DNA of 64,000 nt from an uncultured Chlamydiae bacterium (GCA_963713615.1 CAVQMM010000001.1:1-64000); one strand, 5' to 3'. Positions 20,674 through 27,132 are shown, counted from the first letter of the stretch. A program made the numbers and translations. Notes: generated by a model from the sequence alone, not told the origin.

Positions 20674-23600
20674 TTATGATCTTTCTGCAAGTGCACGAGA
20701 TAGCTCATTGAGCATATAATCACTCCTAGAGTAAGGATCTTCCGCCGCTCTTTTTACTGCTAGAGCTGCAGTGTCATATGCCTGTCCTTTAAGCACAAGT
20801 GAATATAATAGCGAATAAGCCTCATATCTAACCATCGAGTCGGAATGAGCGACGCCCTTCTCAGCGCATTGGATCGCTTCTTCATACCCTTGGCCTTTAG
20901 TAACCAGAGCTTTACATATTCCATTCACATCGTTGTTAAGCTCGGGCTTGCCTAGTTCATTCCTAACTGTAAGAAGAGCGGTCTTATACCCCAGCCCATT
21001 GTTCACAAGTGCCCTAATTAGATGGTACGTTCTTCCGGCTTCGTTAGGATCGGCTAGGGCCTTCTCAACCGTTCGTATCGCAGCTTCATGCGCATGCCCG
21101 CTATCAACAAGCCGCGCGTACAGATAATAAGCATTCGAACGCTCATTGATGCTAGAACTTGCTATCCCCTTTTCTGCAATACGGGTAGCTACTTCATGTC
21201 CCTCACCTTTATACAAGAGGTTTTGAAGTAGATTGCTAAAACGTGATTTAACCAAACCGCTAGGGTCATCGAAAGCCTGTTCAATTGCGTGAGACGCTTC
21301 CTGATACGCCTTACCTTTAGAAATAAGGGCATCGTAGATCGATTCGCTTAAGCTTCTGGTATATTCTTCAGGCTCTTTGATTGCCAGTGCAGCTGCCTGC
21401 ACTGCCATCTCATAAGATTGTCCCTTACGCACAAGACTCGAGTATAACTCATAGACAGCCATTCTAACATTTGGATCAGGGTCCTTTAGTCCTTTTTCAG
21501 CGGCTTGAGTAGCCGCTTTTAACGCATTTCCGCTGTTTACAAGGCTTGTGTATAGGCGATAGGCATTTGTCCTAACCTGTCCGCTAGGATCCATGATCCC
21601 CTTCTCAACCACTTGACTTGCCGTCTCATAGGCTTGCCCCGTGTTAACAAGTGCAGCGTACACCCGATAGGCCGTTTCTCTAACTCGCACGTCAGGATCT
21701 GCTATTCCTTTTTCAGCCAGTTGGTCTGCTTTTTCATATCCCGCTCCACTGCTGACAGCTGTCTCTAGTAGCTGATATGCCTCTGTTCTAACCTCTACGT
21801 TGGGGTCTGCTACTCGCTTTTCAATGTCCAACATGAGTTTTTCTATAAGTTTTTGAAAAATCGCCTCGTTTACCTGGTAGGGGTCTATCTTTTCACTGTT
21901 GGACAGCCTTGTTTGTATTTCGGGTGACCATTGCATATAGCGCAAGTCGCTAATGGGATAGGTACCTGTACTTGCATCACCTAGCTTCTCAAATAGATCT
22001 AGAAGGATGGTGAGTTGCTCCGGATTCTCAATAGAAGAGGTAATGAGGAGTTCATTGTTGGTTAGAAACGAAGACTTAGTAAGATGGATCATTTTAAGGT
22101 CATCAAATAACTCGGCTAATTTGCCAAATGCAAGCCAACGGTTTTCAGACATTCCCAAAAATTGAATTTTCAACTGCAGGGAACCATCCTCTTTGCGGTA
22201 GCCAAGAGTGAGTCCCGCGCTATGCTGGCGAAGTGGTACATTGTATTTGAGGGCTATTTCATCAGACCCGACTTCGAAACTTGTCTTCTGTGGGTATTTC
22301 GCGCCAATTGTTTGCGCTGACGACTTAAAACTAGTTGGCAAGGAGGAGTTGGAGACCAGGGTGTCGGAAAAAGACTCTTGGATTAATAGGCCTATACCTG
22401 CAAGAAGGTTCTGATGAATAAGCGTAAACTTATCCTCTGATGTTACTGGAAAGTGTCTGTCAAAATCCGTCATCGATCCTAGCACCGCAGCAGCTACTGA
22501 AAAGTCTCTTGATGGGTTTAGCTGCTTTATGTCCAGAACCAAATCGGCGTGGACTAGTTCTTCTAACTTATTTAGGTATGTAGAAACATCCCAGTTGAAG
22601 CGGACAGGAACACTTTCTGGATTGATGATGTCGTTGTGCCAACTCTTTAACAGGGAAAAATAGGGCAGCAGCATCGTTCTAAATAGGGGGACCTTTTCTT
22701 CCATGGTCCATTCTGGACTTGCCTTCATCACCTTAATGCTGCTGTCATAGAGATCTACGAGGCTACGCATATTTTTTAAGGCCATCGCTTTCCCCATCCC
22801 TGAGACGTTTTTCATGTCTTGTGCAAACGCTTCCTGCTCTTGTGGGCTAACGAGTTGTTGCAACCTTTCCCATGCCTTGTCGAAGGTCTTTGGATCAGCA
22901 AATAGATCTATCTGATCGCTAATGCTTTGCAGCTCCTCTTTTATATTTACTTGCTTCTCGATAAAGACCAAATCCTCCCCCGAGACCTCATTTGTTAGAT
23001 GTGCCAAACGCTCTAATGTATTAGGGTACGACTCTTGTGAAGGAGAGAAGTGAAAGCTCAACCATTCGGTGAGCAGATCGGCTTTGTCAAAGGCCTGCAA
23101 CATGCGTTTAAATGTTTGCACTTGTTCTATCGGTAGCGTTTTTTGTTCTGCATGCGTCTCCAGATCCAATAGAAAATGTCTCCAATCACCTTGAGCTTCG
23201 GGGGTGAAGGTTTGGTTTCCCATGAGAAGGAGATCGATGAACTTGCTGGGATAGGGCAGTTGCGCTTGGTAGTCGACCAATTGCTGAGTCTCTTCTATCG
23301 TCGGCCAGATGTCCGGCAAAGCGAACTGGTTCACGCTGCCATATTTTTGATCATTGCCCATCAATAGGGACTCTAAGACTTTAACGTGGAAGAGAGGTTT
23401 TAGGCGTTCTCCTTCCGCTTGTCTTTTGACCGCCTCTTTGGTCTCTGTCAGTGCAGCATCGAGATGCCCGGCAAAGGCGTCAACTGTGTCCATACGTCCC
23501 TGAATTGTTTTGGAGGATGGCTGCAAGGGAATTTTTTGTTCTTTGATGTTTTTGACCCAAGGGTGTCGTTCTATGTTCTCCAGGTTTGCCAGCACAGCTT

Positions 23601-26600: not shown

Positions 26601-27132
26601 TTGCTAGAAGTGGAGCAGCTGCTTGGTAGGGCTCATAGATCTTTTCGGTAAATGTTTCTATGGCATCATCAAAAGCAGAGATCTTGGCGCTATACTCGGG
26701 CATGTACCGGGCAAGGACTAATGTTTCGTCCAAAAGTGTCTCTGCCTTTTCAATTTGTTGCCTTGCATGCGCTTCATGCATTTTCGGTAAGTCCAACTGG
26801 TTCAGCTCACCTTGAAGATAGTGCAGATTGCTACGGATGTCCTGAAGATGAATCATCTTCTCTTCGGAGATTTCGTCGTTGCTGCAGATATCTTCAAACA
26901 AATTGGCTATCCGATTGACCAGGGTGGAGTAGCGACGATCAAGTTCATGCAAAGCTGGAAGCTCCTTCGAAGATGCTGAGGGAGCACATAGGCTGCTTTG
27001 CAAGAACTTTTGAACTTGGACCGGCAAGACTTTTCGAGGAGGTGAATGCGAGTTAGCAGTATTGCTGTATGGCACTGGCCTCGGAGCCTCATGGCCCTCC
27101 CTTCGAAAATTGGATAGACCGGAGAAGTCCAT
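20674..27132 (-). CDS. 2152-aa multidomain protein: helical N-terminus, PEP-synthase/PPDK-type ATP-grasp domain, swivelling phospho-His domain, unknown domain, C-terminal HEAT repeats
   Basis: LMVRSTGSEDSRQMANAGG, ISASYGHGDGVVG and DMEIVIKGDTIHPVQARPV match PPDK_N motifs. EPANSHPVVNFSNLGMPC matches the PEP-utiliser His motif. About 10 repeats of the type KGIADPDVRVRETAYRVYAALV. Confidence 0.8.
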   Translation of the reverse strand: MDFSGLSNFRREGHEAPRPVPYSNTANSHSPPRKVLPVQVQKFLQSSLCAPSASSKELPALHELDRRYSTLVNRIANLFEDICSNDEISEEKMIHLQDIRSNLHYLQGELNQLDLPKMHEAHARQQIEKAETLLDETLVLARYMPEYSAKISAFDDAIETFTEKIYEPYQAAAPLLAITDVKEAVERLDDVWQTVQDVKEHPAVGEKMTALFAEDLRNFSWQIEDWVEAVEQSVDQERKVLARLAKGDQPEQAALQLQALDAQLRKIGAVVGELSSKLKDFSSPENKDSIRDLTSALKDMQKLSHTASKGPVNKNNIEYGGEQWLKLVDQRPKEQVGWLKTLFQNVTQSENWSDTTKRIVHSVFIGMQLSEQAIGFTNKLHSVSKEADSLHREALNHIPKEQMEQIDRETAALGTLLSSKFSTLKDSPQTLEKLTKRYPEIRSILQESLKAPQALSQKDIGTITDAYRLQRTLSVGSVPNPYAHLSLQEWWRLFTTKESSETVTIKASPLHLSDVPWNEPATAEKSSGIGSTVIDWIGRLWNNPHEAEEQVSASQKLLKEEIVKTQKMNHQLVPEPSLDELRKEVALLHQELLRTIEHRPADMCPIVELDGWTKQVEEKCYAVQNLERRIEILMRATQGSLVVDDAELESHGVKHTNIVKQARLVEALGIPGIQVPIPHGVASDTIHAFLQKSAPEVFEHWTALGQLYSQHSGEGRFLEEPVAAQHLQAIDEAITKAFNAEGAFEALSLPPEFIAWLDNIKASESYLMVRSTGSEDSRQMANAGGNVSKAYVSPNQQALGEALGDVVKSYFGYGSLQNRINAKQNPFEQKLKLAVTSQELIGETIGGSKHISKIPVSLVLFTDEPLYSGGETFRVMRISASYGHGDGVVGNQGVATDTATLLISETHPDQLYVLYDNKKKTERLAPIQGPDGISLEKVTNPPELQNRPALSPEMLARLYHWGIVGEKFFNGEATDMEIVIKGDTIHPVQARPVNRLPLLPTYLDRRKLALASESPLKESLQSEMLVPGRAAAFSIAKKEEILVAPTLAEAERAFKEGLHRLVIVQQPEPANSHPVVNFSNLGMPCLFVRDSDAVQDLMGQISQDTPLVACMQTSSLHLWDSQKAKTEDFISSGFAVHPAKIAVSIPVPSPQKMPMRRQQVPQEIKDFLIAIRDAESKEAVLANLENIERHPWVKNIKEQKIPLQPSSKTIQGRMDTVDAFAGHLDAALTETKEAVKRQAEGERLKPLFHVKVLESLLMGNDQKYGSVNQFALPDIWPTIEETQQLVDYQAQLPYPSKFIDLLLMGNQTFTPEAQGDWRHFLLDLETHAEQKTLPIEQVQTFKRMLQAFDKADLLTEWLSFHFSPSQESYPNTLERLAHLTNEVSGEDLVFIEKQVNIKEELQSISDQIDLFADPKTFDKAWERLQQLVSPQEQEAFAQDMKNVSGMGKAMALKNMRSLVDLYDSSIKVMKASPEWTMEEKVPLFRTMLLPYFSLLKSWHNDIINPESVPVRFNWDVSTYLNKLEELVHADLVLDIKQLNPSRDFSVAAAVLGSMTDFDRHFPVTSEDKFTLIHQNLLAGIGLLIQESFSDTLVSNSSLPTSFKSSAQTIGAKYPQKTSFEVGSDEIALKYNVPLRQHSAGLTLGYRKEDGSLQLKIQFLGMSENRWLAFGKLAELFDDLKMIHLTKSSFLTNNELLITSSIENPEQLTILLDLFEKLGDASTGTYPISDLRYMQWSPEIQTRLSNSEKIDPYQVNEAIFQKLIEKLMLDIEKRVADPNVEVRTEAYQLLETAVSSGAGYEKADQLAEKGIADPDVRVRETAYRVYAALVNTGQAYETASQVVEKGIMDPSGQVRTNAYRLYTSLVNSGNALKAATQAAEKGLKDPDPNVRMAVYELYSSLVRKGQSYEMAVQAAALAIKEPEEYTRSLSESIYDALISKGKAYQEASHAIEQAFDDPSGLVKSRFSNLLQNLLYKGEGHEVATRIAEKGIASSSINERSNAYYLYARLVDSGHAHEAAIRTVEKALADPNEAGRTYHLIRALVNNGLGYKTALLTVRNELGKPELNNDVNGICKALVTKGQGYEEAIQCAEKGVAHSDSMVRYEAYSLLYSLVLKGQAYDTAALAVKRAAEDPYSRSDYMLNELSRALAERS

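Follow-up and report, generated by a model that had tools for sequence, protein, structure and literature searches.

A candidate family of exported histidine-relay phosphotransferases in Chlamydiota and Babelota

Known dikinases pass phosphate through a swivelling histidine to pyruvate, rifamycins, phenols or starch, and do so inside the cell that produces them. Here we describe a gene at positions 20674..27132 (minus strand) of a 64,000-nucleotide stretch of DNA from an uncultured Chlamydiae bacterium (GCA_963713615.1, CAVQMM010000001.1:1-64000); the whole stretch is called the window below. The gene encodes a protein of 2152 aa with the domain order ATP-grasp, histidine domain, barrel-free middle region and repeats. 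Sequence comparisons and structural models make it likely that this protein belongs to a family of exported effectors, phosphotransferases whose histidine relay works on the host side. If true, this would be a new effector chemistry for two phyla that parasitise protists and about which little is understood. In the literature covered, which leaves out most subscription papers and supplements, we found no prior description of this family, nor of a histidine-swivel dikinase as a delivered effector.

Rifampin phosphotransferase (RPH) has the closest solved ATP-grasp domain (5HV1/5HV3/5FBS; Z 22.4, root-mean-square deviation (rmsd) 2.7, 307 residues). According to the accessible text on this enzyme (PMC4844700), its first step requires K22, R117 and T136, E297 binds Mg yet is dispensable, and the carrier is H825. 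Like RPH, the window protein retains the positions of R117, T136 and E297, has a swivel histidine and carries another acceptor domain in place of the pyruvate barrel. Unlike RPH, in which the order is ATP-grasp, rifampin (RIF)-binding and C-terminal histidine domain, its histidine domain is central and directly follows the ATP-grasp, and NF041857 scores 21 bits against a cut-off of 999. Split two-gene forms exist in this family, as they do for the phenolic dikinases HpeHI, CreHI and PpsAB in the available part of PMC12167813. Predicted export signals, repeat tails and carriers that are intracellular parasites set the family apart from both RPH and the phenolic enzymes, and no RPH match was listed for the acceptor region.

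Phosphoenolpyruvate (PEP) synthase and pyruvate phosphate dikinase (PPDK) also place the histidine domain after the ATP-grasp. They differ from the window protein in their TIM barrel and in the Gly-Gly of the histidine loop, and the housekeeping PPDK of this genome is encoded apart. The glucan water dikinase (GWD) StGWD1 is similar in that its histidine relays phosphate to a helical acceptor domain, accessory targeting modules are present and the substrate is macromolecular; its order of CBM45, central domain, histidine domain and C-terminal ATP domain, as given in the accessible text of PMC13553574, is different. In addition, the window protein has no carbohydrate-binding module, and its acceptor module includes an alpha/beta subdomain. 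Finally, barrel-less PPDK-like proteins, probably of the DVU0246 kind, have the same domain order, but conserved signalling and transport neighbours are theirs only. By analogy, the protein would work like RPH, PEP synthase and GWD, and it stands outside each of them by domain order or barrel. We regard it as a new family within a kind of enzyme already known; no match was found for its acceptor module, and the role predicted for it would be new.

The catalytic core and the middle region

The layout of the gene is as follows.

20674..27132, minus strand: whole gene, 2152 aa, single intact open frame
26953..27132, minus strand: residues 1-60, Ser/Pro-rich, hydrophobe-poor N-terminus without Sec signal, a candidate for type III export
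25213..26952, minus strand: residues 61-640, variable N-terminal extension retained only in closer relatives, no family match
24148..25200, minus strand: residues 645-995, PEP-synthase/RPH-type ATP-grasp with K654, R770-S771, E775-D776, S788, D975, E977, Q989 and R991
23698..24135, minus strand: residues 1000-1145, swivel (phospho-histidine) domain
23914..23916, minus strand: H1073, predicted phosphate-carrying histidine, first in a short helix (from model and conservation)
22978..23655, minus strand: residues 1160-1385, bundle of four helices followed by a helical linker, poor in invariant polar residues
21958..22977, minus strand: residues 1386-1725, predicted acceptor module of a three-helix bundle, a loop region and an alpha/beta subdomain
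21973..22335, minus strand: residues 1600-1720, alpha/beta subdomain with H1637, G1660 and R1665
20677..21819, minus strand: residues 1772-2152, 11 HEAT-like repeats of period 36

An initial annotation, made from the sequence alone, had proposed a single gene with PEP-synthase-like nucleotide-binding motifs, a histidine motif and about 10 C-terminal HEAT repeats. The single frame was confirmed, the repeats (which match Pfam HEAT/HEAT_2) number 11, and the histidine of the motif NSHPVV is residue 1073 (codon 23916-23914). The nucleotide-binding region was recognised by Pfam PF01326 (PPDK_N) over residues 660-995, with 54 bits against a cut-off of 27 (E 2e-14), once the region had been cut out. 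A Pfam scan of the whole protein matched the HEAT repeats alone and missed the ATP-grasp. Likewise, the core as a single sequence had no match in the PDB, and profiles were required.

The AlphaFold2 model of residues 640-1720 (55 rows; pLDDT 90, pTM 0.83) comprises the ATP-grasp (645-995), the swivel domain (1000-1145), an all-helical region (1160-1590) and the alpha/beta subdomain (1600-1720). Foldseek ranked RPH, PEP synthase, HpeI and PPDK at the top for this model, with E-values from 1.5e-11 (RPH) to 3e-5. The ATP-grasp and histidine domains were also aligned in one piece by VIA with RPH 5hv3 (Z 21.4, rmsd 4.2, 396 residues), PEP synthase 2ols (Z 21.2, rmsd 4.6, 388 residues) and PPDK 1dik (Z 16.2, rmsd 4.7, 353 residues). 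A profile of 28 diverse members matched the RPH ATP domain with an E-value of 1.5e-37, and R770, S788 and E977 fell on R117, T136 and E297 of RPH, after subtraction of the 12-residue offset of the deposited chain. K654 aligned to the lysine of the genome's own PPDK and stands at the position equivalent to K22 of RPH.

Conservation was assessed in 199 full-core sequences (218 before duplicate removal) and in 119 further proteins that overlap the first set in part. R770, S771, E775, D776, E977, Q989 and R991 were present in all 199 sequences, K654 in 195 and S788 in 189 as Ser, with Thr common among distant members. H1073 was invariant in both sets (199/199 and 119/119); it sits at the start of a short helix in the core model, and a block scan of residues 1062-1086 gave the swivel histidine motif as best match, in register. 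The loop around it was not matched by Pfam PEP-utilizers, and the identity of the swivel domain is drawn from fold and profile matches in its place. The loops of relatives are related and rich in Pro, Ala and Thr. Dikinase-type chemistry, which the initial annotation had also claimed, is well supported by the modelled fold, the retained ATP-site residues, the invariant swivel histidine, the absence of a barrel and the separate housekeeping PPDK. That the histidine relay is active we hold to be very probable. The two-step relay of the beta-phosphate and the swivelling itself are suggested by analogy with RPH, PEP synthase and GWD.

The absence of the pyruvate-binding barrel, noted from the start, was evident at two levels, and the standard barrel that would have counted against the initial annotation did not appear. 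The PEP/pyruvate barrel PF02896 has three matches in the genome, all outside the gene, and the middle region (1154-1740) folded alone as an all-alpha structure with one small alpha/beta subdomain and no beta/alpha barrel (pLDDT 91). This region had been described as unrecognised sequence, and it remained so: no Pfam or NCBIfam family matched, and Foldseek gave no match at E <=0.001 in PDB or BFVD for the 587-residue model. VIA matches were generic helical bundles with Z up to 9.5, for a model of 587 residues where the advised size is 400. The RIF-binding acceptor fold of RPH did not appear in the fold-search listings of this model, in which unlisted does not mean excluded. Nor did the GWD central-domain fold (9HA9), an entry whose presence in the library is unconfirmed. 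The alpha/beta subdomain weakly resembles T3SS-chaperone, YbjN and MotA-CTD folds (Z 7.6-8.1). A sequence match to Cdc42 (E 0.01) was dismissed as chance because the region is helical in the model.

Five polar residues of the middle region match the ATP site in conservation, as would be expected of an acceptor site. These are H1573 (199/199), K1467 and H1637 (198/199 each), Q1574 (197/199) and D1463 (196/199); among the further proteins, H1637 was found in 117 of 119 and the other four in all 119. Hence, D1463, K1467, H1573, Q1574 and H1637 likely form the predicted acceptor site. The module of residues 1386-1725 is a gene by itself in two Babelota loci (L061, L065), which indicates that it is a unit. 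A search for this module among shorter proteins gave 13 matches, whose named taxa were chlamydial or labelled 'Verrucomicrobia'; their listing showed no new catalytic domain as a partner. The ESM Atlas held nothing usable for the middle region of the protein; its sub-threshold rows for a stand-alone acceptor half, with a poor Atlas model, are a lead only. Complex prediction for the histidine domain with the middle region scored 0.27 against a mark of 0.32.

The regions on either side of the core are more variable. Sampled positions 51-551 of the N-terminal extension were covered by 12-47 of 120 relatives, and the extension before the core ranges from 21 to 617 aa among chlamydial members. The coiled coils claimed for this region were only weakly seen, since a simple heptad score gave a single coiled-coil-like stretch (residues 256-283). 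A 1700-aa ankyrin-repeat protein of the same genome (C1:1940737-1945836; L003:2738-7837) matches residues 177-498 weakly (E 6.6e-4, 20%), possibly through a shared helical chassis or by chance. Meanwhile, the tails of relatives consist of HEAT or DUF4116 repeats.

Family distribution and predicted export

Protein searches returned 135 and 355 matches (120 of each listed), and a search of representatives returned 567 matches at E <=1e-30 (best 150 of 567 listed). Among those listed, all named matches were Chlamydiota or TM6/Babeliales, and the family is restricted to Chlamydiota and Babelota among named records. Records titled Myxococcaceae or Verrucomicrobia were taken as mislabelled, because they nest among chlamydial rows of the tree and SctV occurs in the genome of one Myxococcaceae-titled record. 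In Chlamydiota, 64 of 400 genomes matched at E <=1e-10, 57 of them with a best E <1e-25; seven weak matches were set aside as PEP-synthase-length frames, repeats or fragments. The Chlamydiota that carry the family are environmental ones, and no match was found in the 29 genomes of family f37, inferred to be Chlamydiaceae (genomes of 1.0-1.2 Mb). In Babelota/Dependentiae, 38 of 201 genomes matched, 29 below 1e-25. The family is thus patchy in distribution and multi-copy, with 2-4 copies in many genomes. Babelota rows as one clade received a p-AU of 0.0155 (41 rows, quick tree; tested after an earlier tree had been seen). Since the Babelota rows do not form one clade, exchange between the two phyla or old paralogy is suggested. 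No relative was found in an IMG/VR scan or in PLSDB, and the sequencing runs listed comprised no RNA run with the gene and only small DNA shares.

The genome of the window (3.97 Mb, 3 contigs), whose assignment to Chlamydiota fits the names of close homologues and its T3SS genes, encodes an intact paralogue at C1:765555-771900. Between the two intact copies, the ATP-grasp is 83% identical and the histidine domain 78%, against 63% for the middle region and 39% for the repeats, which diverge fastest. A broken third copy lies at C1:1232296-1234418 (L002:6296-8419) and retains the N-terminal 514 residues, after which come a stop and, in a different frame, a piece of the HEAT repeats; compared with the intact paralogue, about 4 kb are gone, including the entire enzyme core.

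Some members are fused to further domains. A dual-specificity phosphatase with intact CX5R is present in 3 of 312 proteins, once N-terminally and twice C-terminally, and among 22 members scanned one carries a USP-type deubiquitinase and one carries ankyrins. The fused members are P0271, P0292, P0305 (MBY0352995.1, one of the phosphatase fusions), P0290 and P0205.

The N-termini of the family suggest two routes of export. The Ser/Pro-rich N-terminus that the initial annotation had pointed out was borne out by numbers: Ser and Pro make up 30.5% of residues 2-60, which ranks at the 99.4th percentile for own-genome ORFs of >=250 aa (n=1803), and the hydrophobic share of residues 2-35 is at the 1st percentile. 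The genome contains T3SS (type III secretion system) genes, with SctU and SctV above cut-off and a SctW-like gene below it. Such genes are what we read as pointing to type III export, together with a Ser/Pro-rich, hydrophobe-poor N-terminus that lacks a Sec signal, the latter by nature a weak criterion. A heuristic for Sec signals was positive for 22 of 24 Babelota family ORFs versus 13 of 29 other ORFs at the same loci, for 3 of 41 chlamydial family ORFs versus 21 of 96 in the background, and for 91 of 117 further members versus 0 of 49 proteins of a control family, cytoplasmic and dikinase-like. In three split Babelota genes (L048:5833-9512, L061:173-3843 and L065:188-3918) both adjacent halves open with a signal-like stretch (heuristic positive in 5/6), apparently forming an exported two-component enzyme.

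SctV had no match in four Babelota genomes with the Sec form, and was matched in the fifth genome tested, which has the non-Sec form. On the tree, Sec and non-Sec forms interleave, and therefore the only compartment common to them would be the outside of the bacterium. Likewise, homologous enzymes that bear a Sec signal in one phylum but lack it in the phylum with the T3SS are most readily accounted for by a shared destination outside the bacterium, where host ATP would be available. We infer type III delivery for the Chlamydiae protein and Sec export in Babelota. A close chlamydial relative with a Sec-type signal (L014:5659-9864) nests with the non-Sec copies of the window's genome, which suggests a recent switch of export signal. 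The secretion proposed in the initial annotation is therefore backed by the Sec signals of Babelota relatives, the genomic T3SS and the eukaryote-directed fusions, and for the Chlamydiae protein itself this backing is indirect.

Several observations weigh against an exported dikinase effector. The Sec calls come from a purpose-made heuristic and not from SignalP, and it fires on 495 of 1803 own-genome ORFs (27%). In the available text on Chromulinavorax (PMC6561590), 44% of CDS bear signals and effectors are described as Sec-exported; our Babelota background rate agrees with this value, and the phylum exports many proteins anyway. The completeness of the genomes without SctV is not stated, and a protein exported by Sec alone might go no further than the periplasm or the vacuole lumen. 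The N-terminus of the paralogue is less rich in Ser and Pro (18.6%), and the phosphatase fusions are rare. Finally, the histidine loop reads EPANSH and lacks the Gly-Gly of the canonical T/S-x-x-G-G-x-x-x-H (PMC12167813, accessible part).

Possible acceptors of the relay

Based on these findings, we postulate the following sequence of events. The protein would be delivered through the T3SS into the host cell, where its ATP-grasp would bind host ATP. H1073 would take up the beta-phosphate while AMP and Pi are released, as in RPH, PEP synthase and GWD (for the last, PMC13553574 in its accessible part). The histidine domain would then swivel to the module of residues 1386-1725, and a host acceptor would be phosphorylated at the predicted second site. 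The fast-evolving HEAT or other repeats may choose the place or the partner, which is a guess. For the acceptor itself, a host protein side chain is our tentative suggestion.

Evidence that bears on a protein acceptor came from the barrel-less PPDK-like proteins (~870 aa), to which we were led by the sub-threshold Atlas rows and then by a short motif. The metagenome set comprises 120 loci, 118 with the motif inside the ORF. Proteins of this family (L088-L167, ~810-890 aa) consist of an ATP-grasp, a histidine domain and a non-barrel C-terminal domain, the same order as in the window protein, without helical insert or repeats, and signal peptides were called in 0 of 49. Their C-terminal domain has many invariant His, Asp and Arg residues, and no Pfam covers it.

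In a 318-row alignment, the alpha/beta subdomain matched this family over 88 columns (E 0.0044, score 20.7; 30/30 block shuffles were lower, with a maximum of 15.5), H1637 fell on an invariant His, and the H1573 block fell on a second one with an E-value of 0.07. A first hhalign comparison with a shallower alignment gave E 0.2, and 17 of 30 shuffles scored higher; a block scan confirmed 1 of 3 motifs, and in global alignment some shuffles were not exceeded. The ATP-grasp tree did not join the two families and is uninformative here, since long branches meet and no RPH was included. The comparison was picked after the lead. On balance we lean towards homology between the effector family and the barrel-less proteins.

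Neighbours of the barrel-less genes include receiver/kinase genes at 29 of 80 loci, TauE at 15 and USP at 12; these are not conserved at 49 effector-family loci. Judging from its domain list and neighbours, and unaligned, this family is probably of the kind of DVU0246 of Desulfovibrio. According to the available text of PMC4001038, the operon of that gene also contains TauE, a histidine kinase, a receiver and a dual-specificity phosphatase. In D. vulgaris growing in nitrate, losing DVU0246 reportedly had the opposite effect to losing the phosphatase, an outcome not seen in D. alaskensis. No CX5R phosphatase was found among 502 neighbour ORFs of the barrel-less loci. By analogy, a DVU0246-type operon hints at a protein acceptor without proving one. 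If the effector and barrel-less families are linked, that unexplained family would become testable too.

Taken together, and with more doubt than confidence, the family might be a secreted protein kinase of a new class that phosphorylates host proteins with the beta-phosphate of ATP through a swivelling phospho-histidine, with the dual-specificity phosphatase as eraser. It would occur in two phyla, probably by exchange, and may descend from a DVU0246-like, uncharacterised dikinase of bacterial signalling. Should a protein prove to be the acceptor, the enzyme would be a kinase with a fold other than those known for kinases. The defined and confidently modelled core of 1080 residues, presumably soluble and with named residues at both predicted sites, makes the acceptor directly approachable.

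Within the same exported enzyme, the acceptor could instead be a small molecule of the host or the head group of a lipid (inositol, a phosphoinositide, a sugar, a nucleoside or a phenolic defence compound), a possibility that we find unlikely but worth keeping in view. The non-glucan dikinases described in the accessible parts of PMC4844700 and PMC12167813 all act on small molecules, the polyphenol dikinase catalytic set consists of Asp and two His (PMC13553574, accessible part), and the fused phosphatase domains score weakly with a phytase-like Pfam family. Conserved pathway, transporter or catabolic neighbours are missing, and the huge variable repeat tails and multi-copy expansion better fit macromolecular targeting.

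A role for the bacterium itself, in cytoplasmic signalling or in the envelope or periplasm, appears improbable. It is favoured by the barrel-less family, which combines the same domain order with the signalling and transport neighbours described above. Against it, no single bacterial compartment fits a family that carries Sec signals in one of its phyla and lacks them in the other, there are no shared neighbours (the largest shared cluster recurs in 3 of 49 family loci), and members are fused to deubiquitinase, ankyrin and HEAT domains.

In plants, GWD acts alongside glucan phosphatases, and the fusion of dikinase and dual-specificity phosphatase recalls this pairing. The protein could thus be an exported analogue that phosphorylates host glycogen or another storage glucan to mobilise it, again a branch of the exported effector. 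Among known dikinases, GWD alone acts on a macromolecule and has an acceptor domain built entirely of helices (PMC13553574, accessible part). We give this version little credence: the domain order is unlike that of GWD, Pfam detected no carbohydrate-binding module in the protein or in 42 relatives scanned, and the invariant acceptor residues are mostly polar and form no stacking aromatic platform.

It is still less probable that the exported protein is an ATP-to-AMP drain or mostly a scaffold, in which the loaded histidine is hydrolysed to water without a dedicated acceptor. GWD is able to pass phosphate to water (PMC13553574, accessible part), but the five polar residues of the middle region are conserved like the ATP site in both phyla, and a loss of host ATP would presumably harm an energy parasite. 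Lastly, an ordinary PEP synthase or PPDK with extensions, as database labels such as 'PEP/pyruvate-binding domain-containing protein' and the order of the first two domains would have it, is scarcely credible, given that the barrel is absent by hidden Markov model and in the structural model, that a canonical PPDK with barrel (926 aa) is encoded at C1:2790261-2793038, that NCBIfam scores are all far below cut-off, and that the family forms one long-stemmed group apart from PEP synthase in the ATP-grasp tree.

Genomic surroundings

The gene is flanked by a dispersed intergenic repeat of ~250 bp (window ~19350-19610 and ~27340-27610), which has hundreds of BLAST matches genome-wide. Just downstream of the gene are two small overlapping ORFs of 81 and 135 aa (window 19869-20485), which resemble a HicA/HicB-type pair; the 135-aa ORF has no Pfam match. 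Genes for tRNA-Thr and tRNA-Tyr lie at window 18880-19049. A Big_9/cadherin-like repeat adhesin extends over four ORFs, possibly through frameshifts, at window 172-18442; after these ORFs come a protein kinase gene and then HlyD, M50-HlyD and outer-membrane efflux genes. At window 60951-63499, two tandem BTB/POZ-domain genes adjoin an IS66 element. The genome as a whole has 37 ORFs of >1500 aa.

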